A stretch of 49,994 nt of DNA from an uncultured Syntrophus sp. (GTDB taxonomy: Bacteria > Desulfobacterota > Syntrophia > Syntrophales > UBA5619). The DNA lies in contig CAZKHU010000005.1 of NCBI GenBank assembly GCA_964552725.1, positions 1 through 49,994 of the forward strand. Direction: 5' to 3'. Both the position numbers and the translations under genes were made by a program. The notes under the pieces were generated by a model. The model was not told where the DNA came from. It worked only from the letters and a program-made list of their open reading frames with translations, and made no database searches. Shown in pieces: positions 27,709 through 42,856 of this stretch (position 1 is the stretch's first letter; each line of letters starts with the position of its first letter).

Positions 27709-28500
27709 CTACTTTGTATGACATTCAAAGCACAAGGCGCTCCCCCTGTTGCTCCGGACAAGCATGGCCGGCAGAGTGGAGTAGAGATTATGACAGGAGC
27801 CGCAGCCGAGCTTCCCGTCAAACAATCTGATCCGCCTGTTGAGCAGTTCCTTCCTTCTATATCCGCCTTTTCTTGCTGCCTGTTGATAATCTCCGCCTAT
27901 GGGATGGCTGCCGGCATTCCCGGCGCCGTGTTGCCAGATGCCGCCGCCGATATTAACCACGCGCGCCCCGGCAAGTCCGCCATCATGGCAACCGAGGCAT
28001 TCCTGAGATTCACGGTCCAGAGGCTGACTGGGGTTTACCGTCTCGTACTGTGGCTGATGGAGCAAAGAAGAGACAACCTCATGCCCGTATTTATTTTTTT
28101 TGAAAAGCGTTTCCCGATGACAGCTCATGCAGAAGGCCTTCCCCGTTTTTTCTGCCACCAGCAAATATTTTCTGCTCCCGTGAATTTCATGGCAGGTCGC
28201 GCAGGTCATTTTTCCCGCCCAGTCCAGCCTGAATTCCGGCGGCAGCGGGAAGGACGGTTTCACCCCGTACGGATGAGACATGATGGTTCCAATCTGCGCA
28301 TGACATCCCCTGCAAAGCTTGTCCACATCGCTGACGAGCAGTATCTTTCCACCCTTCAAGGGCGTGTTGAGATGGCACTGGCCGCACTTGCCCTCGAAGA
28401 GGTGTTCTTTCTCCATGTTTCCTGCAAAAGCAAGCAATGCCGAAAACGCCCCGCTAAATAATAAAGCGATCAAGAACGGCCTGCATCTTTTCTGCGTCAT
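27709..28500 (-). CDS. Secreted heptahaem c-type cytochrome
   Basis: Signal peptide plus seven CXXCH sites (CGQCH, CRGCH, CATCH, CMSCH, CLGCH, CGSCH, CFECH). Confidence 0.85.
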   Translation of the reverse strand: MTQKRCRPFLIALLFSGAFSALLAFAGNMEKEHLFEGKCGQCHLNTPLKGGKILLVSDVDKLCRGCHAQIGTIMSHPYGVKPSFPLPPEFRLDWAGKMTCATCHEIHGSRKYLLVAEKTGKAFCMSCHRETLFKKNKYGHEVVSSLLHQPQYETVNPSQPLDRESQECLGCHDGGLAGARVVNIGGGIWQHGAGNAGSHPIGGDYQQAARKGGYRRKELLNRRIRLFDGKLGCGSCHNLYSTLPAMLVRSNRGSALCFECHTK

Positions 28501-29023
28501 CCTTAATCCTCAGTATTGCCGCTGAATTACCCTTCTCAGATGGAAGCCCCTCTTTTTGCAAGGCATTCGTTCTGGCCGAAAACTTGCCGTAATAATACTT
28601 TAATTCCTTAAAACTGGCATGCCATTTTTTGAGCATCTCATTGAATTTTACAGATAGAATCTGTCCCTGGTCGGCGCCGCGCAAGCTCATTTCGTGAATA
28701 TTGAGGTCCCCGCTTTTTAGCCGTTCTATATTGCCCTCCAATTTAAAAATCGCCCCTCCTACCTTGTGGGACAGAAAAAGGGTAAGGAACAGAGTGAAAA
28801 GAACGGCCAGTATAATCTCAAAAAGCACCACAAAAATAATTATCGGGACAAGTTTCACCTCGGTCTTTTGCACTGCGTAAACAAGGGATGCATAAAAGGT
28901 TGCATTCCCCTTCGGCAAGATGAGCAAAAAGAACAAGACGCTTAATATTGATATTGCCGCCATCCCTATGCAAAATCGGGCGATAAAGCCCCATTTGAAA
29001 CGACTGTCGATATATTCGTTCAT
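28454..29023 (-). CDS. Two-TM HAMP-domain membrane protein with no output domain
   Basis: TM2 is followed by SHKVGGAIFKLEGNIERLKSGDL (HAMP-like). 189 aa. It overlaps the heptahaem gene start by 47 nt. Confidence 0.5.
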   Translation of the reverse strand: MNEYIDSRFKWGFIARFCIGMAAISILSVLFFLLILPKGNATFYASLVYAVQKTEVKLVPIIIFVVLFEIILAVLFTLFLTLFLSHKVGGAIFKLEGNIERLKSGDLNIHEMSLRGADQGQILSVKFNEMLKKWHASFKELKYYYGKFSARTNALQKEGLPSEKGNSAAILRIKDDAEKMQAVLDRFII

Positions 29024-29076: not shown

Positions 29077-31202
29077 TTAAAAAGGCCTCGAAACTGTCAA
29101 ATATATGGACTGCCGGCTGTAGGGACTGTTCGCGCCTGTCTCGTTGCGCCAATTGTGCTTGAGCTTGATCATTATCCGCCTTATGGAGAAATGCAATGCA
29201 TTTTCCATGCTATAAACCGTGCGCGCGGTGGAAGTTCCGGTTATTTGGCCTGCTGCATCGCCGGAATCCGTGACGGAATTATCCCATTCCCCGCGCAAGG
29301 TCATAGTAATAAAAAGGGCTCTCAGCGGCGCCGACCTGAAAATAAGCTGGCTGTAGAAGTAGCTTCTGTCGGTCTGGGAGCCGCCCCCTCCGCCCGACTC
29401 GCTGATCTGGCTGCTCAGCACACCGCCGCCGCTTATCGTGGCCATGTTAACCTCGGAAACGTAAGCAAGCCAGGCGTAGTTCATGTCGAGCTCGGTCGTG
29501 CGGGACAAATTGGAGTAGGGCTGAAACGTCGTATTCGCCCCCGCTTCCGTTGCCGCAACGATCGCGTCGTTTTTGCTGTCGTCCTGGCTGTAACGCAGTA
29601 AAGACTGAAGCTGAACCCGCGCCGAAGGGGAAACAGACCAGGCGCCGTTCGCTTGCCAGTTGGTCGTTCCGCCTCCTCCCGACGATGCGGACCTTATCGC
29701 CTGCGTCTGGAGGGTAACATTGGACTTCCACCAGTCATAGTCCCGGGAGGCGGAGGCGCCAAGCCCGGCGTTTCCGACTGCCTTGCTTGCGGCTACCGAT
29801 TGATTGCTGTTGTTCAACCCCATGTTTTCAAAGAAATTGAGATTCCAGAGCCCGACTTTCCTGTTGTAATTCATTCCGGCCGAGATATTTTCCGACGCGT
29901 TCGTCGCACCGCTTCCCGAATCCGTATATCCTGCCCCCATACTGGCGTTGACGCTAAGCTCGGGATTAAGCTGGCAGTTCGTGGAATTGGAGAAAAAAAG
30001 ATTCGTTCCCGCTCCCGCCTCCGAGCTGAAATAATAGACATTCAGGCTGCTGTTATTGCTGAATGCCTGCGACGGGCGATAACTGAAAGAGCTCGTCGAA
30101 TTGAGGTTAATGATGCTGCTTTCCTCCTGCAACCCCGTTTTAGGCGCTCTTTGGCCAATGATCCAGTTTATGCCGTTACTGATGATGGTGACCTCCACCC
30201 ACTGCGTCTGCAGGATGAGCGAACCGGCGCCGCCGATCGTCTCCGCTCCCGCCGGTTTGACGGTAACTCTGTTGGCCGTCGCATCGATCTTGACAATTGT
30301 GAAGGTGCGGCCGGCATCGCCCAGGGCGCTGGGGAGCGACGCCGTAAGATTCGCCAGAACGGCGTCAAACCTGACAATCTCATCAGCCCTGGTCAGCGTG
30401 TAATCGCTGTTTTTTGTTACCGTGGGGGAGGTAATGTCCTGAAATCTTCCCATTCTGCTCAACGAGTTAAACCGGAAATCCTGGCGAAAGGTCTTGCTTT
30501 CGGAAAATGTCTTTTCCAGATTCACCTGGGCGGCGTGCTCCCGGGTATTGTTGGTCTGCTCGATCTTGTCGGCCGTATCGGTAAAGGAATATGCGTAATT
30601 ACTTGAAAAACCGGAGAAGTCCTTATTGGCGCTGATTTGCAGACGTCGCACGCTTCTGTCGAGCCGCTGGTCTCCGTTCGAACCTTCCATACTGTTCTCG
30701 TCATAGTTGATGGCAACCGGAAAGGGCCGATAATTAAGGTTAAGCAACGCCCCATAATTTGTGTTCGTCTGCGATACCAGCGCGGAACCGGCGCTCGCCG
30801 TAAGAGGAACAAAACTGCTGAGGGACTCGCGGTTGGCGTAAAAAGAGGTATTGATGCGCCTCCCGGGAAAGAGCTCCGCCCTCGCATTGTACCCCAGATT
30901 GTCTATGCTCGAGGAGGCGCCGTTGGTCTCCGTATTGCCTTTGCCTATGGAAACGCCCAACTGGTAGTTCAGCAATCGGGGACTGAGGACAAAACTCTGG
31001 ACGTCAATCTTGTAGCGGTGTTCAAAGGAGCTGTAGGCGCTATGCTGGTCCTGACTGTCTTCCGTTTCATTCTTCGTTTCCACTTCAACCGCGCCGGCAA
31101 CATAATATTTCCCATAACGGGCCGCGGCGGCTGGAATCGTCCCCCCGAGAAGAAAAAAAAAACAATCAGCGCTGCGGCATGCCTAATCCCCGTAAACCTC
31201 AA
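29077..31202 (-). CDS. Large beta-barrel outer-membrane protein (porin-like), frameshifted in a T10 tract as assembled
   Basis: The main frame 29077..31083 is N/S/T/G/Y-rich with alternating strands and ends ...YLTVSRPF. A TTG at 31202 (RBS AAGGAG) encodes the signal-peptide-like MRFTGIRHAAALIVFFF. It runs into the homopolymer at 31153-31162, where the frame is lost by 1 nt. Confidence 0.6.
31153..31162 (-). repeat. Homopolymer (A10 on plus strand, T10 on the coding strand) inside the signal-peptide region of the barrel gene
   Basis: Counted directly: ...gagaag aaaaaaaaaa caatcag... Confidence 0.9.
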
Positions 31203-32199
31203 TTTTGGCGTTCTCCTTGAGAGACATTAGCAGATCGGCAAGCCTTTTTTCCACGGCTTTTTGCTCCAGTTCCTTTTTCAGTTTTTCCTTCACCTCTTCA
31301 AATTTCAACTGTTGCGGCGGGAACTTCTCCCCCGCCTTCAGGATATGATGACCGTAAAGGGAGGTCACGACGCCGCTCAGCTCCCCCGTCTTCAAGGCGA
31401 AGGCCGGTTTTTCGACATCGGGCTCCAGCCTGCCCCGGTGCACCACCCCCAGGTCGCCCCCCTTCACCCGGCTCGGGTCGTCGGAATTGTCCCAGGCGAG
31501 CCGCTGAAAGTCCTCTCCCTTTTTAAGCCGCACAAGCAGGGCCTCCGCCTTCTTTTTCAGTTTCTCCTTCTCCTCCCGCGGCGCCTCCGGCGGCACCCTG
31601 ATCAGGATATGAGAAAGACGCATCGCCTCCGGCTTCTGGAACTTCTCCCGGTTTTTCTGATAATAAGCGAGCAGCTCCGTATCTTTTAGCTCCGCCTTTT
31701 TATAGACCTCCTCCTTCAGGAAAAGCTCGGCCAGCATGATATGGTCGAGCTTTTTTCTCACATCCTTCTCGGTAAGGCCGTACTTTTTGAGAGCCTCCCG
31801 AAAGGCCTTTTTTGAGGGGTATTTCTTGACGATCTCGGCGAATCTTCTGTCGAGATCGTCTTTGGCCACCTTGTAACCCTTCTTGAGGCCTGCCCGGTAG
31901 AAAAGCTCCTCCTGGATCAAATTTTCGAGGGCCTTTTTCTCCAGCTCCTTTATCTTTTCCGGCGTCACATTGCGATGATAGGAAGCCTGGGGCAGAAGGG
32001 TCGCCACGGTCTCGTCGAGCTCGCTCTGAGTTACTACCATACCGTTTACTTTTGCCACAGTCTTAAGACGGGGATTTTGCTCCGCCGCAAAGAGCAGGGC
32101 AACGTTAAAAAAAACAAAAACGGCTACATACACCGTCATTGCGGGGTACCTGCGTAATATGCCAACCGGATCCTCGTCTATCAATACTTTTTTCTTCAC
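31183..32199 (-). CDS. Periplasmic PpiC-type peptidyl-prolyl isomerase / SurA-PrsA-like chaperone
   Basis: N-terminal TM/signal and a SurA-like helical N-domain. Parvulin block reads HILI....A....GEDF..LA...S.D...GGDLG....G.L. Confidence 0.85.
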   Translation of the reverse strand: MKKKVLIDEDPVGILRRYPAMTVYVAVFVFFNVALLFAAEQNPRLKTVAKVNGMVVTQSELDETVATLLPQASYHRNVTPEKIKELEKKALENLIQEELFYRAGLKKGYKVAKDDLDRRFAEIVKKYPSKKAFREALKKYGLTEKDVRKKLDHIMLAELFLKEEVYKKAELKDTELLAYYQKNREKFQKPEAMRLSHILIRVPPEAPREEKEKLKKKAEALLVRLKKGEDFQRLAWDNSDDPSRVKGGDLGVVHRGRLEPDVEKPAFALKTGELSGVVTSLYGHHILKAGEKFPPQQLKFEEVKEKLKKELEQKAVEKRLADLLMSLKENAKIEVYGD

Positions 32200-33504: not shown

Positions 33505-33867
33505 TTACGTTTTCAAGATGGCATTAATCCAAGACCAGTTGGCCAGTTGCCGGATTGCTAACTTATTTGCCGCCATCTCTGCCAAGCCGAATTCGGCTTG
33601 AGTTGTGGCAACATCCAAGGCATCAAAGACGCGATTGGCGAAGTAGTCGCGTCTGAGTATGTTCCATAGTTGCTCCGCCGGATTCAGCTCCGGTGAATAG
33701 GGCGGCAGTCGAATAAAGGACATGTTCTTTGGAATCTTAAGCTCCTTGCTTCTGTGGGATGATGCTCCGTCCAGCACCATGACGATGAACTGGCCCGGGT
33801 GTGCTTTGCTGACTTGATCCAAGAAACGGGACATGTTTTCCGTACTGATTTGAGTCTGTCTCGCCAT
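33505..33867 (-). pseudogene. IS630-family DDE transposase, C-terminal remnant
   Basis: VLDGASSHRSKEL...LPPYSPELNPAEQLWNILR is the third catalytic block (DDE_3). Only about 120 of an expected ~340 aa are present. Confidence 0.7.
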
Positions 33868-33957: not shown

Positions 33958-34701
33958 TCACTTCACATGGCAGGCTAAACATAGGGCGCTGCCGGTATTG
34001 CTTACTCTTAAGAACAGGGCGCCTGCCGTTCCACCACCGTCTACGCTGTCTCCCGAGGCAGCATGGGGATCGTGACAGCTCGAGCACTCAACTTTGGATG
34101 CCTCTGACACACCTTTTATTTCGGTTGCAGATAGTACCTTGGCCGTGGCAGAGGCTGTCCCATTCGGGGCCCTTAGACTTGCTTTAGCCGTGGTGTATAC
34201 AATGGATACAGGATGGTCATTGCCAAGCGCCTCTCCGATTCTGGTTACCCCATCAGGCATAAGAAGCGCGGTATCAAGACTGGTAACAGGGTTAGCCCAT
34301 GCCACCTTTGTACCGGCGGCGAGATATCCACCCGAACCAGCTTGATTAACAACAGAGTTGATGGCACTGACTCCGTCGTGGCAGGAGAGACATGCCTTTG
34401 TTACGGTATTCGGTGTGCTGTCGGGCGCAGTGCCTGCCAATGTATTCCCGTACATGGTATAGTTGCCTGTTGCTGCTGCCTTGTTCCATAGCGGGCCTGC
34501 TGCTGTATTGGCCATATGAGGAGTATGGCAGTACACGCAAATTTCATTGTTTTGACCACCACTATTGTCAATGCCATTGGAAGCGAGCGACAAATTATGT
34601 TTTGTTGTGATGATCCCCGCCTTGGCGATCTGGGCCACCATCAGGATCGAAACCATTGCGATCATGACCAAGAGCATTGTTTTTGTAATTGACTTTTTCA
34701 T
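33958..34701 (-). CDS. Small secreted tetrahaem c-type cytochrome (paralog A)
   Basis: Signal peptide plus CVYCH, CLSCH, CSSCH and CLACH. Shared scaffold is KHNLS..CxxCHTPH..PLWN..YTMY..CLSCHDG..NDHPVS..ECxxCHDPH..SALCxACHVK-stop. Strong RBS AGGAG. Confidence 0.85.
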   Translation of the reverse strand: MKKSITKTMLLVMIAMVSILMVAQIAKAGIITTKHNLSLASNGIDNSGGQNNEICVYCHTPHMANTAAGPLWNKAAATGNYTMYGNTLAGTAPDSTPNTVTKACLSCHDGVSAINSVVNQAGSGGYLAAGTKVAWANPVTSLDTALLMPDGVTRIGEALGNDHPVSIVYTTAKASLRAPNGTASATAKVLSATEIKGVSEASKVECSSCHDPHAASGDSVDGGGTAGALFLRVSNTGSALCLACHVK

Positions 34702-34876: not shown

Positions 34877-35551
34877 CTATTTGATGTGGCATCTCAGGCA
34901 AAGGGCGCTGCCGCCGTTGGTTGCCCGCAGGAACGGCGCGTTTGTATTGTCGTGCACATTGTGGCAACTCGCGCATTCCACCTGGTTCTTCAAAGTCCCA
35001 TAGAGGGGCAGGCCGTTTACCGCGCCGCTTGCCGGCACAACAAAGGCCGGGTCTTTTGAGGCATCGTAGGTTACCGATATGGGGTGGTCGTTGCTCAGGT
35101 CGGAGCCCAGCATGGCCGAGGGACTTGTCGCTGCCGTCATCGTGTTTCCGGCGGCATTCCACGTCCAGCCGCTGGGAGCGCCGCTGCCGGAGCCGGGTTT
35201 GTTGAGCAGGGAATCGAAGGCCACTGTGCCGTCATGGCAGGACAGACAGGCCGCCGACACCCCCTGGGGATTGGCCGCTACGGTCATATCAATGGTGGCG
35301 CTGACGCTGCTGCTGTACATGGTGTAGGTTGCCGCGGAAGCCGATCTGTTCCACAGCGGCGCTGAGGAAGAAGAAAAATGCGGCGTATGGCAAAACACGC
35401 AAACCTGGTCAGTGCCGGTTGTTTTATAGGGAGAGCCGCCCGTGGCGGAGGAAAGGTCGTGTTTGGAACCCACCACCGAGGCTGCCCGGAGCGCCGGGAC
35501 ATTAAAGAATATGATCATTATGCCTGTTAAAAGAAAAACTTTGCATTTCAT
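34877..35551 (-). CDS. Small secreted tetrahaem c-type cytochrome (paralog B)
   Basis: Starts MKCKVFLLTGIMIIFFNVPALRA. Haem sites CVFCH, CLSCH, CASCH and CLRCH. The ORF-track extension to 35710 only translates a REP element. Confidence 0.85.
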   Translation of the reverse strand: MKCKVFLLTGIMIIFFNVPALRAASVVGSKHDLSSATGGSPYKTTGTDQVCVFCHTPHFSSSSAPLWNRSASAATYTMYSSSVSATIDMTVAANPQGVSAACLSCHDGTVAFDSLLNKPGSGSGAPSGWTWNAAGNTMTAATSPSAMLGSDLSNDHPISVTYDASKDPAFVVPASGAVNGLPLYGTLKNQVECASCHNVHDNTNAPFLRATNGGSALCLRCHIK

Positions 35552-35580
35552 CTTTGCGTTTACCAGATTCGTAGTCTCTC

Positions 35581-35603
35581 CTGGGTGATATGCCCCACCC
35601 ACA
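35581..35603. repeat. Single copy of the 22-bp motif TGGGTGATATGCCCCACCCACA
   Basis: Identical to 36599-36620. It lies 30-52 nt upstream of the paralog B start codon. Confidence 0.7.
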
Positions 35604-35623
35604 TGCGTCATTTCACCCAATTT

Positions 35624-35685
35624 GTCATTGCGAGGGCGAATCCCGTGGCAGTCCCATGAGATTGCTTCGCTTCGCTCGCAATGAC
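35624..35685. repeat. REP-like element (GTCATTGCGAG ... CTCGCAATGAC)
   Basis: 11-bp perfect inverted arms at 35624-35634 and 35675-35685. It translates to the recurrent RFARND peptide seen in spurious ORFs. Confidence 0.6.
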
Positions 35686-35694
35686 AGGACAAAG

Positions 35695-36393
35695 TCACTT
35701 GTTGTGACATTTATAGCAAAGAGCGCTCCCCGTATTCGCTATCCTCAAAAAAGGCACCCTGGCCGGATCGTGGACATTATGGCAGGTGGCACATTCCACC
35801 TTGCCGGAGAAAAGCGGCACGTCGGACCAGCCCTTTTGAAAATCCGGAGGGACCAGAAACCCCGCATCCTGGGCCGCCGTCGGATAAATCATCGAAATGG
35901 GGTGGTCATTCGTGAGATTGGGACCGACCGCCGGTATTGAGTACATTGATCCGCCATGAGAGTCGTGACACGCGGCGCAGCTTATGGAATAAGTCCCCGT
36001 CAAACCTGAACCCGGCGCATTGATAACTGCGTGGGTATAAGTCGCAGTCGCAGCCTCGGGGGCGCTGACGCTGTCGTGGCAACCCAGGCAGGCCAGCGAA
36101 AGCCCGCTGGGCCGGGAGGGGATTGTTGTGTCTATGGTCGGACTGGTGTACATGGTAAAGGCGTCAAAGTTGAAATCGGCGCTTTTTTTATTCCACAGGG
36201 GAGCGGCAATTGTGGCGCTTGCAAAATGGGGGGTATGGCAGTGGACGCAAACCTCTCCTCCGGCCACGCTGATATCGTGCTTCGATCCTACCACCGAGGC
36301 GGCCCGGACAGCCGGCGCATTAAACGCCATGACTGTTATCATTGTGAAAAGAAAAACTTTCTGCCTGATTTGTTTGCCCATCAACTCCGCCAT
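35695..36393 (-). CDS. Small secreted pentahaem c-type cytochrome (paralog C)
   Basis: Signal peptide ...AFNAPAVRA. Haem sites CVHCH, CLGCH, CAACH, CATCH and CYKCH. Same scaffold as A and B with one inserted haem site. An alternative start is Met5 at 36381. Confidence 0.85.
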   Translation of the reverse strand: MAELMGKQIRQKVFLFTMITVMAFNAPAVRAASVVGSKHDISVAGGEVCVHCHTPHFASATIAAPLWNKKSADFNFDAFTMYTSPTIDTTIPSRPSGLSLACLGCHDSVSAPEAATATYTHAVINAPGSGLTGTYSISCAACHDSHGGSMYSIPAVGPNLTNDHPISMIYPTAAQDAGFLVPPDFQKGWSDVPLFSGKVECATCHNVHDPARVPFLRIANTGSALCYKCHNK

Positions 36394-41645: not shown

Positions 41646-42856
41646 TTGCCGCCGGTCTTTAAGATTTCCTCCAAGGCCTGCTTATAGTAACCGTTGGCCC
41701 TGGCATATTCGCCCTTCTCCGCAAAAAATTTGCCGATCTTGTTCATGATCTCCGGCGACTTGTTGCTCAGGGAAGCGGCATGGGCAAAAGAGGCTTCCGC
41801 CTCCTCCCGCAAACCCTTACCATAGGAAATAAAGCCGGAATAGACATAGGCGTCCGGGGTTTCTTCCCTGGTCAGGCTTTCAGCAAACATCTTCATGGCT
41901 TTGTCTGCATCCTTGTCATGATAATACAGCTTTCCCCTGCTCATCTTCACGGCCGGATCATCCAATATGGCTGCATCGATCTTTGCCGGCAATGCCCTTG
42001 CCTCATCGATCCGCTTCAAACTCAAATACAATTCCATCAGCCGGACGATAGGTTTGACATATTTGGGATCGGCTTTCAAGGCTTTTTCGTAAAGATCGAC
42101 AGCCCTGTCATAATCCTTTTTCTTTTCAAACTTGCGCCCCATCTGATAGGACAACATTGCCAGCTTGACGGGCCGGTAAACCTCCTGCTCCACCAATCGT
42201 TTATCACCCAGAAAGTATCCGACCTCTTCAAAAAAAAGTTGGGAACCGACAAGGGGAAAGCCGGACATCTCCCGGCTGATCACCAGGTTGTTATCAAGCA
42301 AGATCAAGGTGGGCAGGGCAATAACTCCCAGTTTGTCAAACAGCGTCAAACCGAAATCTACAAACATGGGGAAGGTAAGTCCTTCGGAAGCCGCCTTTAT
42401 TTTCTTGAGATCCTCCTCGGTGATATTCTGTTCCTCCACGTTAACAGCCACTATTTCCAGACCCTGCTGCTTCCACTTGGCGTAATTCGTCTCCAGCAGT
42501 CTTAGGGCCCTCTGGGAATTTTTCGTCGAGGTCTGCCAGAAAATCAACAACGTCCCCTTTTTACCCGCAAGCTCCGTCAAAGAGAAACTCTTACCCGCCG
42601 CATTGCTGACGGAAAAAGGGGGAATTGCCTCTCCCGTTTGCAAATCCCGCAGCGCGGAGACGCATTCAGGGGAAAAGACGATAAAAGAAAATACAGCCAA
42701 GAATAAGGCTCTTGCAAAAGTCTTCAAGAGAGATTGCTTCGTTGTTCCTCCTCGCAATGACAATCGTTCCGAGTAGTTGGTCATTGCGAGCGAAGCGCGG
42801 CAGTCCCGGTTTTGTGACTTTTGCAATTGCCTCAAGAGTAACAACAATTTTTTCAT
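41642..42856 (-). CDS. Thioredoxin-fold (TlpA/ResA-like, active-site Cys absent) plus TPR protein
   Basis: Redoxin-like block GKKGTLLIFWQTSTKNS..., followed by several TPR-like repeats. The ATG at 42856 overlaps the upstream stop (ATGA), but codons 15-43 translate a REP element. An alternative TTG start at 42727 gives MKTFARALFLAVFSFIVFSPECVSA. Confidence 0.6.
   Translation of the reverse strand: MKKLLLLLRQLQKSQNRDCRASLAMTNYSERLSLRGGTTKQSLLKTFARALFLAVFSFIVFSPECVSALRDLQTGEAIPPFSVSNAAGKSFSLTELAGKKGTLLIFWQTSTKNSQRALRLLETNYAKWKQQGLEIVAVNVEEQNITEEDLKKIKAASEGLTFPMFVDFGLTLFDKLGVIALPTLILLDNNLVISREMSGFPLVGSQLFFEEVGYFLGDKRLVEQEVYRPVKLAMLSYQMGRKFEKKKDYDRAVDLYEKALKADPKYVKPIVRLMELYLSLKRIDEARALPAKIDAAILDDPAVKMSRGKLYYHDKDADKAMKMFAESLTREETPDAYVYSGFISYGKGLREEAEASFAHAASLSNKSPEIMNKIGKFFAEKGEYARANGYYKQALEEILKTGGK
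42729..42807. repeat. REP-like element of the same family as 35624-35685
   Basis: GAGATTGCTTCG...CTCGCAATGAC (42729-42761) and GTCATTGCGAGCGAAGCGCGGCAGTCCC (42780-42807) match the two halves of the 35.6 kb copy. Confidence 0.6.

Follow-up and report, generated by a model that had tools for sequence, protein, structure and literature searches.

The window analysed here is a stretch of 49,994 nucleotides (nt) of contig CAZKHU010000005.1, which comes from an uncultured Syntrophus species. It contains a gene whose product is, judging from its modelled fold, the MtrB-like barrel of an OmcE-type cytochrome-nanowire cluster in a Syntrophales metagenome-assembled genome (MAG), and this gene is written in two reading frames that meet in a run of ten T residues. 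The same split recurs in five diverged lineages under purifying selection, and so read-through by a slipping polymerase or ribosome is the most likely explanation. On balance, we lean towards a shifted gene that is functional and that is read via its conserved slippery tract, by transcriptional slippage and possibly with a ribosomal contribution; this reading is built on comparisons of sequence. A literature search found no paper that describes this frameshift site in the barrel gene. Below, WIN denotes the window, L numbers denote loci, P numbers proteins and X numbers sequencing runs.

The barrel gene and its two reading frames

The barrel gene is on the minus strand, as are all of the features described in this section. 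The start codon of the precursor is a TTG (31200-31202), and a Shine-Dalgarno sequence, AAGGAG (31213-31218), precedes it with a spacing of exactly 10 nt. This box lies within the codons for ...LKENAK... of the upstream gene (31183-32199), which encodes a SurA-like peptidyl-prolyl isomerase (PPIase; Pfam Rotamase_3, 2.9e-25, and SurA_N_3, 5.8e-14) and is present at the matching position in all of the related loci. Because the TTG overlaps the last codons of the PPIase gene, the arrangement suggests that the two genes are translationally coupled.

The first frame (frame A, 31163-31202) encodes the n-region and the start of the h-region of a signal peptide (M R F T G I R H A A A L I V...), and its amino acids agree with the signal peptides of in-frame homologues. 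It then enters the T10 tract at 31153-31162 (U10 in the mRNA, A10 in the template and on the plus strand), the junction of the frames and the putative slippery site. T10 is the longest homopolymer of the window and its only A/T run of at least 9 nt. The TTG frame reads MRFTGIRHAAALIVFFFFSGG... and is open for 77 codons, and standard decoding would give the product MRFTGIRHAAALIVFFFFSGGRFQPP... (30969-31202). Past the tract, frame A is not conserved, and the other shifted lineages reach a stop codon 4-25 codons after it. The second frame (frame B, 29077-31152) encodes the remainder of the signal peptide, LLGGTIPAAAA, and a mature barrel of about 680 amino acids (aa) that ends in ...SRPF, with the stop codon at 29077-29079; the probable signal-peptide cleavage site is before RYGKY, at about 31119. 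Across the junction the minus strand is ...AAGGAGaacgccaaaaTTGAGGTTTACGGGGATTAGGCATGCCGCAGCGCTGATTG-T10-CTTCTCGGGGGGACG..., and the long frame through the tract reads ...FFFLLGGTIPAAAARYGKYYVAGAVEVETK. In this main frame, which is also the frame of the PPIase gene, the first ATG, GTG or TTG downstream of the in-frame TAG that ends the PPIase gene (31185-31183) is a GTG at 31083, and this GTG opens an open reading frame (ORF) of 668 aa, METKNETEDSQ.... Adding one T (T11) or removing two (T8) fuses the frames, and the T11 version is a 708-aa ORF starting MRFTGIRHAAALIVFFFLLGGTIPAAAARYGKY....

A first-pass annotation of the window had described the T10 position, the GTG 31083 and TTG 31202 starts, the Shine-Dalgarno sequence and the meeting of the frames within T10, and we confirm all of these. 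It had also proposed that the two halves join into a normal signal peptide. In-frame relatives (protein P0001 and the strains in X2, X3 and X5) do use the same TTG and encode MRFTGIRHAAALIAFFFLIGGTIPAAAARYGKY, and the predicted repair by T11 or T8 to about 708 aa is likewise supported, with T11 giving 708 aa.

A profile search of a protein database with the barrel was repeated and the second pass returned the same 22 proteins; as far as that database goes, our list of family members should therefore be almost complete. Genome contigs scanned with a single barrel protein gave no relative, and the same scan with the barrel profile gave two. We scored 18 distinct lineages, and two in-frame clusters (P0014 and P0016) were additionally judged from protein alone. 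The tract states were read from consensus contigs, and all of the sequencing runs were used as Logan contigs.

Five lineages are shifted, namely the window, L001 (92% aa identity to it), L004 (70%), L002/L012 (66%) and L010/L011 (42-43%). Written with its flanking bases, the tract is gT10c in WIN, L001 and L004, aT10c in L002 and gT9g in L010. The in-frame lineages have cT10c (L017, also in X2, X3 and X5; L020, L013, L023 and L024), gT10g (L006), cT9c (L019), T8 (L005 and L026), T7 (L022), or a T5 or no tract (L025, L008 and L009). Thus, a tract is found at the same codon position in 12 of the 18 lineages, T10 in 10 of them and T9 in two. The DNA of L001, L002/L003/L012 and L004 has an AAGGAG-like box, the TTG, LRFT...IVFFF, the T10 and then, in the -1 frame, ...LLGG or LAGG...AAA(R/Q)(Y/F)GKY, and T11 would repair all of them alike. 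The gene of L010/L011 (protein P0019, from hot-spring metagenomes) is split at T9, with ...MGIKIAIGFLVFF before the junction and LLCDIDKVAFAFQFGKY after it, and here T10 would be the repair. Every shifted lineage needs one additional nucleotide; none needs one fewer.

The signals around the split are also conserved. AAGGAG (or AGGGAG or CGGGAG), 10 nt and a TTG are kept in the 15 homologous loci in which the motif was found. Counted from the start codon to the mature N-terminus, the distance comes to 0 mod 3 for 12 of 12 scorable in-frame lineages; the five shifted lineages all have 2 mod 3, and 1 mod 3 was never seen across the scored lineages. In the 12 in-frame lineages, the TTG is in frame with the mature protein and no stop codon intervenes, even where up to about 70 codons lie between them; two in-frame homologues, P0001 and P0003, are annotated from this TTG as MRFT.... 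Since the Shine-Dalgarno/TTG motif is conserved family-wide and the distance mod 3 is consistent, the split exceeds what chance would give. Shifted and in-frame states are interspersed on a neighbour-joining tree, and therefore several transitions, at least 3-4, are implied over evolutionary time. In some relatives, a short inverted-repeat element that is described below lies between the barrel TTG and the signal peptide, with the reading frame kept.

Selection on the shifted genes and on the tract

The shifted genes are maintained as well as the in-frame ones. Each of the five has 644-648 intact codons downstream of the tract, and a second lesion, either a further stop codon or a further shift, was sought in all five and none was found. 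The ratio of nonsynonymous to synonymous substitution rates (dN/dS) is 0.246 for WIN and L001 and 0.213 for L002 and L004, both shifted pairs; for the in-frame pairs L017-L019 and L019-L020, the values are 0.225 and 0.212. When changes are polarised with outgroups, the lineage-specific counts of nonsynonymous to synonymous substitutions are 14:26 in L001, 24:54 in L004 and 43:79 in L002, and all three lineages are constrained. A pseudogene is expected to have a dN/dS near 1 and to accumulate lesions, and neither was seen in the five lineages, where dN/dS is 0.21-0.25. Because the purifying selection equals that on the in-frame genes, the shifted genes must be expressed, and the earlier view that the porin is OFF as assembled is probably wrong. 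The first-pass annotation had also reasoned that intact relatives without a homopolymer would indicate a fixed pseudogene; however, the intact relatives carry T10.

The tract itself is kept against codon usage in the in-frame relatives. Six in-frame lineages encode A-F-F-F at the tract, where Phe is TTT in 18 of 18 codons and Ala is GCT in five of six; in the window's genes, TTT accounts for 57% of Phe codons and GCT for 11% of Ala codons. The synonymous divergence (dS) between the A-F-F-F lineages ranges from 0.55 to saturated. With four lineages taken as independent, a naive probability of these codons is about 0.57^12 x 0.107^4, or about 1e-7. Lineages that encode F-F-L attain T10 or T8 by way of GTT and TTG codons. 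Other A/T runs of at least 9 nt in the related loci are limited to an A9 in L026 and a T9 in L014, a more distant Campylobacterales locus. No tract exceeds 10 residues, and the RNA:DNA hybrid has about this length. Such codon choices argue that the T run is selected at the nucleotide level in the in-frame relatives.

Slippage and its alternatives

We envision that the barrel is encoded by the TTG and the first 17 signal-peptide codons in one frame and by the remainder in the -1 frame, with T10 as the joint. RNA polymerase would slip on the all-rU:dA hybrid and add one U, and the resulting U11 mRNA is the likeliest route to the protein. Ribosomes might contribute by shifting -1 on U_UUU_UUU or U_UUU_UUC; both heptamers are present in the zero frame, GUU UUU UUU UUC. 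The U11 mRNA and the -1 shift would yield an identical 708-aa precursor, ...IVFFFLLGG..., and standard decoding would yield just a short, non-conserved peptide. The tract, then, would not be an off switch but would lower and set how much outer-membrane barrel is made in proportion to its operon partners. What the sequences show is the anatomy of the split, its recurrence in five lineages, its stability in DNA across samples, the purifying selection on the shifted genes and the selection for the T run in in-frame relatives; slippage itself and its level, transcription or translation, are inferred, and the barrel yield may be biologically tuned or may simply be tolerated.

Several properties of the site resemble those of known slippage sites. 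An A/T run of about the length of the RNA:DNA hybrid (at least 9) is at the junction, T10 in the window and T9 or T10 in the other shifted lineages, and the two-frame arrangement is conserved under purifying selection across the five lineages at 42-100% identity. Runs of 9 A or T residues make the RNA polymerase of bacteria slip, for example in Thermus dnaX, in Shigella mxiE, spa13 (25-30%), spa33 and mxiA, and in Buchnera and Blochmannia (PMC5009743). Escherichia coli RNA polymerase prefers poly(T), and T7 and T8 rescue -1 reporters at 5-10%, a value that increases with length (PMC6260861). In general, bypass of an indel in a homonucleotide run is common and allows functional protein to be made (PMC3812077).

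Some results weigh against slippage. The flanks 5' and 3' of the tract are no more stable than shuffled sequences (z of +0.3 to +2.1, and one of -1.0), and they are not conserved between the shifted lineages. A terminator-like hairpin 5' of the tract, which could be a slippage stimulator or an attenuator after the PPIase gene, was sought and none was found. Because no flanking structure was found, the case for efficient -1 ribosomal frameshifting and for hairpin-stimulated slippage is weakened, although slippage on long runs needs no stimulator. A search of RNA runs for the locus gave one run of unknown kind, from an in-frame strain, and thus no transcript evidence. The window's own terminal branch has 11 nonsynonymous to 6 synonymous substitutions, as compared to 14:20 in its in-frame sister; these counts are small, and they are compatible with some relaxation. 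Finally, consensus contigs could hide minority tract-length variants in the DNA, and a DNA switch would also produce interspersed shifted and in-frame alleles.

Four other explanations have to be considered. One is a sequencing or assembly artefact, in which a real T11 or gcT10 would have lost one base when the consensus was called. Homopolymers are the commonest site of indel errors. However, a Logan contig of depth 9 from X1 is 100% identical to the window, with T10 and no indel, and another from X6, a different study, also has a depth of 9, one mismatch, T10 and no indel. In addition, four other lineages are split in the same way in NCBI MAGs, in JGI assemblies and in Logan contigs whose samples were taken from groundwater, landfill and hot springs, and this material comes from different projects and was made with various assemblers. 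The cT10 relatives are always called in frame, and we therefore reject the idea that T10-11 runs are systematically undercalled. The nearest of these (X2, X3, X5 and X10, about 91-95% identical to the window) have one extra base, ATT GCT TTT TTT TTT CTG ATC, and these gcT10 strains (protein P0001) have an intact ORF from the same TTG. The assembly error that the first-pass annotation offered as an option is, therefore, effectively ruled out, and we consider an artefact of any kind to be very improbable. A phase-variable switch was its other option. Slipped-strand mispairing of the DNA during replication would then toggle the tract between T10 (off) and T11 (on) and so switch the display of barrel and nanowires in subpopulations, for instance under phage or other surface-directed pressure. 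The layout is the classic one, that is, a simple repeat in the 5' coding region, here the signal-peptide region, of an outer-membrane protein gene. Purifying selection fits a gene that is on part of the time, a selected mutable site would be kept against codon usage as this tract is, and the in-frame and shifted states alternate on the tree. Both states also occur in one study (P3), with a gcT10 strain in X3 and a gT10 strain in X12, and apparently both in one landfill run, X15; yet these are distinct strains about 5-9% apart in DNA and not length variants of one genome. What stands against a switch is that the tract is identical between samples in every lineage sampled 2-5 times (window, X1 and X6; L001 and X12; L012, X21 and X23; L010, L011, X25 and X26/X27; L020 and L021; L005 and L007; L017, X2, X3, X5 and X10). 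At the consensus level, neither a T11 'on' allele in samples of shifted lineages nor a cT9 or cT11 'off' allele in lineages with an in-frame T9 or T10 was seen, and hence none of the repeat-number polymorphism that distinguishes the on and off alleles of a contingency locus. The nearest in-frame and shifted lineages (WIN/L001 versus L017, and L004 versus L020) differ instead in the C before the run, gcT10c versus gT10c, with T10 kept, and WIN and L001 are both shifted across a dS of about 0.15. Variation in tract length thus finds no support in the consensus, and overall we judge a DNA switch to be possible but unlikely.

A true null allele would be a recent one-base deletion in a gene that is dispensable or in early decay, and its recurrence would reflect a high deletion rate of a T11-like tract, as homopolymers favour contraction. 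The substitutions on the window's terminal branch would fit this, and so would a remnant of an IS630-type transposase (33505-33867), which indicates that the cluster is otherwise damaged. However, the 11:6 count is the sole hint of relaxation and amounts to 17 substitutions, the longer branches of L001, L004 and L002 are constrained like in-frame ones, and no second lesion occurs in the 644-648 codons of any shifted gene. The signal-peptide frame 5' of the tract is also open and similar to that of in-frame homologues, and we regard a null allele as improbable. The last alternative is expression without slippage, by read-through of the PPIase TAG to give a fusion protein or by a start at GTG 31083 that gives a barrel with no signal peptide. 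In five of the five shifted lineages, the mature barrel shares its frame with the upstream gene, but this follows automatically from the loss of 1 nt. A GTG equivalent to that at 31083 is present in four of the five; the codon is CTG in L010 and in close in-frame relatives, and because it is CTG in the X2, X3, X5 and X10 strains it is not a conserved start. The PPIase gene ends with TAG in four of the lineages and with TAA in the fifth, no read-through context is known for these stops, and the main frame has no start codon upstream of the tract. It is also established from work on the Sec and BAM machineries that a barrel ending in ...RPF cannot reach the outer membrane without a signal peptide. 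Expression without slippage is accordingly a highly unlikely explanation. TAG read-through, initiation at GTG 31083 and a near-cognate start in the main frame were each considered as candidates and rejected.

Going one step beyond slippage as such, T10 might be a selected recoding device instead of a lesion that is tolerated, in which case polymerase slippage fixes the amount of the nanowire anchor or secretion barrel that is made per operon transcript. We put this forward tentatively, as an idea that may well not hold. Such a device could possibly respond to the supply of uridine triphosphate or to growth rate. Lineages could drift between gcT10 and gT10 without loss of function because a sizeable fraction of the transcripts would be re-framed either way.

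It is useful to compare the window site with systems in which frames are joined at homopolymers; the closest to it in how it would work are Shigella mxiE/spa13 and the poly(A) rescues of endosymbionts. Early in the Shigella flexneri genes mxiE and spa13, two frames are joined by 9-10 consecutive T or A residues, and the polymerase adds a nucleotide in part of the transcripts, 25-30% for spa13 (PMC5009743). As we propose for the window, the DNA is one nt short, an insertion rescues it and the yield of a component of an envelope-spanning machine is set. However, the mxiE and spa13 sites were proven on RNA and each is a fixed feature of a single species, whereas the window site is known from DNA; the latter is also within a signal peptide, and its relatives alternate between in-frame and shifted states, unlike mxiE and spa13. 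Through its A9, Thermus thermophilus dnaX is transcribed into a mixture of mRNAs, from which two proteins are made (PMC5009743). Like the barrel gene, dnaX is a chromosomal, non-mobile gene of a free-living bacterium, but its zero frame gives a long product and slippage a short one, both of which are functional, whereas in the window the slipped product alone looks functional.

Frameshifts in the poly(A) tracts of Buchnera and Blochmannia are rescued by polymerase infidelity (PMC5009743). Those endosymbionts have AT-rich, reduced genomes with many tracts and weak repair, whereas the window genome has 53% GC, belongs to a free-living organism and has one A/T run of at least 9 nt in 50 kb, kept against codon usage in the in-frame relatives. 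Endosymbiont genes with homopolymer indels reportedly stay under purifying selection, with slippage restoring part of the mRNA, a finding associated with Tamas et al. 2008 and Wernegreen et al. 2010. Neisseria opa and Helicobacter pylori oipA are phase-variable outer-membrane protein genes that have a slippery repeat in the signal-peptide region and occur as in-frame and out-of-frame alleles. Their repeats vary in length between and within strains; in contrast, the tract of the window family is constant (T10, with T9 in one shifted lineage).

The barrel, its cluster and significance

The restored barrel protein has no Pfam family. In an AlphaFold2 model made from 20 homologues (mean pLDDT, the predicted local distance difference test score, 75.4), residues 5-19 form a signal helix, about 26-28 long antiparallel strands follow and residues 261-350 form a small inserted beta domain; the C-terminal ...SRPF has the form of a C-terminal aromatic beta-signal. 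Compared with the PDB, the fold comes closest to MtrB from the Mtr complex of Shewanella (6r2q_B; E 4.6e-9, template-modelling score 0.46-0.49), followed by TonB-dependent receptors and ushers. No sequence similarity to MtrB was detected in the Pfam and profile searches; besides weak matches in Campylobacterales, the profile searches gave only some 20 family members, from metagenomes and from MAGs of the Syntrophales type. The inserted domain also distinguishes the window barrel from MtrB-type porins. This highly conserved domain of about 95 aa (GRTFTIVKIDATANRVTVKP...SNGINW; about 30040-30310 in the window, residues about 261-350) is widespread, both alone and as repeats in unrelated proteins, and no Pfam model was found for it. 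Most of the 4,630 representatives that matched at E<1e-10 align to the inserted-domain stretch alone.

The OmcE-type nanowire and extracellular-electron-transfer cluster spans 21519-41645 on the minus strand. It contains ccsA, resB, a 656-aa multihaem cytochrome, a 263-aa cytochrome, three NHL beta-propellers, a 216-aa membrane protein, a 189-aa protein, the barrel, the SurA-like PPIase, a 340-aa cytochrome, and a sigma-54 response regulator with a histidine kinase. Three OmcE homologues are also present (33958-34701, 34877-35710 and 35695-36393, all on the minus strand). Their matches to the OmcE nanowire subunit, 7tfs, have E-values of 5e-43, 7e-21 and 3e-18, listed from best to weakest. The gene order is common to the related loci, and close homologues come from Syntrophales and Smithellaceae MAGs by name. 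OmcE clusters have been described in which multihaem cytochromes, beta-propeller lipoproteins, OmcE and a large beta-barrel lie beside resB/ccsB (bioRxiv 10.1101/2025.10.22.684050). The layout in the window agrees with these; the differences are that a SurA-like PPIase is part of the cluster and that the host is a Syntrophales/Smithellaceae-type MAG and not a member of the Desulfuromonadia.

Three further observations concern the cluster. A protein of 189-193 aa (28454-29023 in the window, minus strand) is always encoded 3' of the barrel; it is conserved and has no Pfam family, and its gene overlaps the start of the next cytochrome gene (27709-28500) by about 47 nt in the window and in most related loci. 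This protein probably represents an uncharacterised component of the complex. The transposase remnant mentioned above is of the DDE_3 (IS630) type, has 120 aa (Pfam 8.8e-17, minus strand) and lies between an NHL propeller gene and the OmcE paralogues. Because the related loci list no such gene there, it is an insertion scar of this strain. Lastly, a short GC-rich inverted-repeat element (...GTCATTGCGAGCGAAGCGAAGCAATC...CCTCGCAATGAC...) occurs at intergenic spots, at 35620-35690 in the window with a shorter piece at 42780-42797, and in L001 (3150-3300 and 2092-2118), L017 (1916-1955), L022 (2211-2257) and others. The window's copy has been translated as if it extended the N-terminus of the 277-aa OmcE ORF, which is spurious; the true start of this ORF is probably the methionine of MKCKVFLL....

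A practical consequence concerns annotation. Gene callers annotate the shifted barrels without a signal peptide, at 668 aa for P0002 (92% identity) and P0007 (66%), 675 aa for P0005 (70%) and 689 aa for P0019. Because the signal peptide is dropped, surveys of extracellular-electron-transfer capacity in Syntrophales MAGs will overlook the porin or take it to be broken.

In free-living bacteria it is rare for an ordinary chromosomal gene to have a conserved recoding site, and most of the known transcriptional-slippage cases are in mobile elements, virulence plasmids or degenerate endosymbionts. Here, a two-frame gene recurs down to 42% identity, in a barrel that is thought to anchor or export OmcE-type nanowires. 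If the more tentative idea of a selected recoding device is true, the machinery with which free-living anaerobes transfer electrons out of the cell would have a programmed transcriptional-slippage site in the chromosome, and this would also be a natural case in which frameshift alleles are viable evolutionary intermediates. Should slippage be confirmed, the site would offer a simple natural system for studying how the expression of an outer-membrane component can be set at the level of the transcript and how frameshift alleles persist as functional intermediates.

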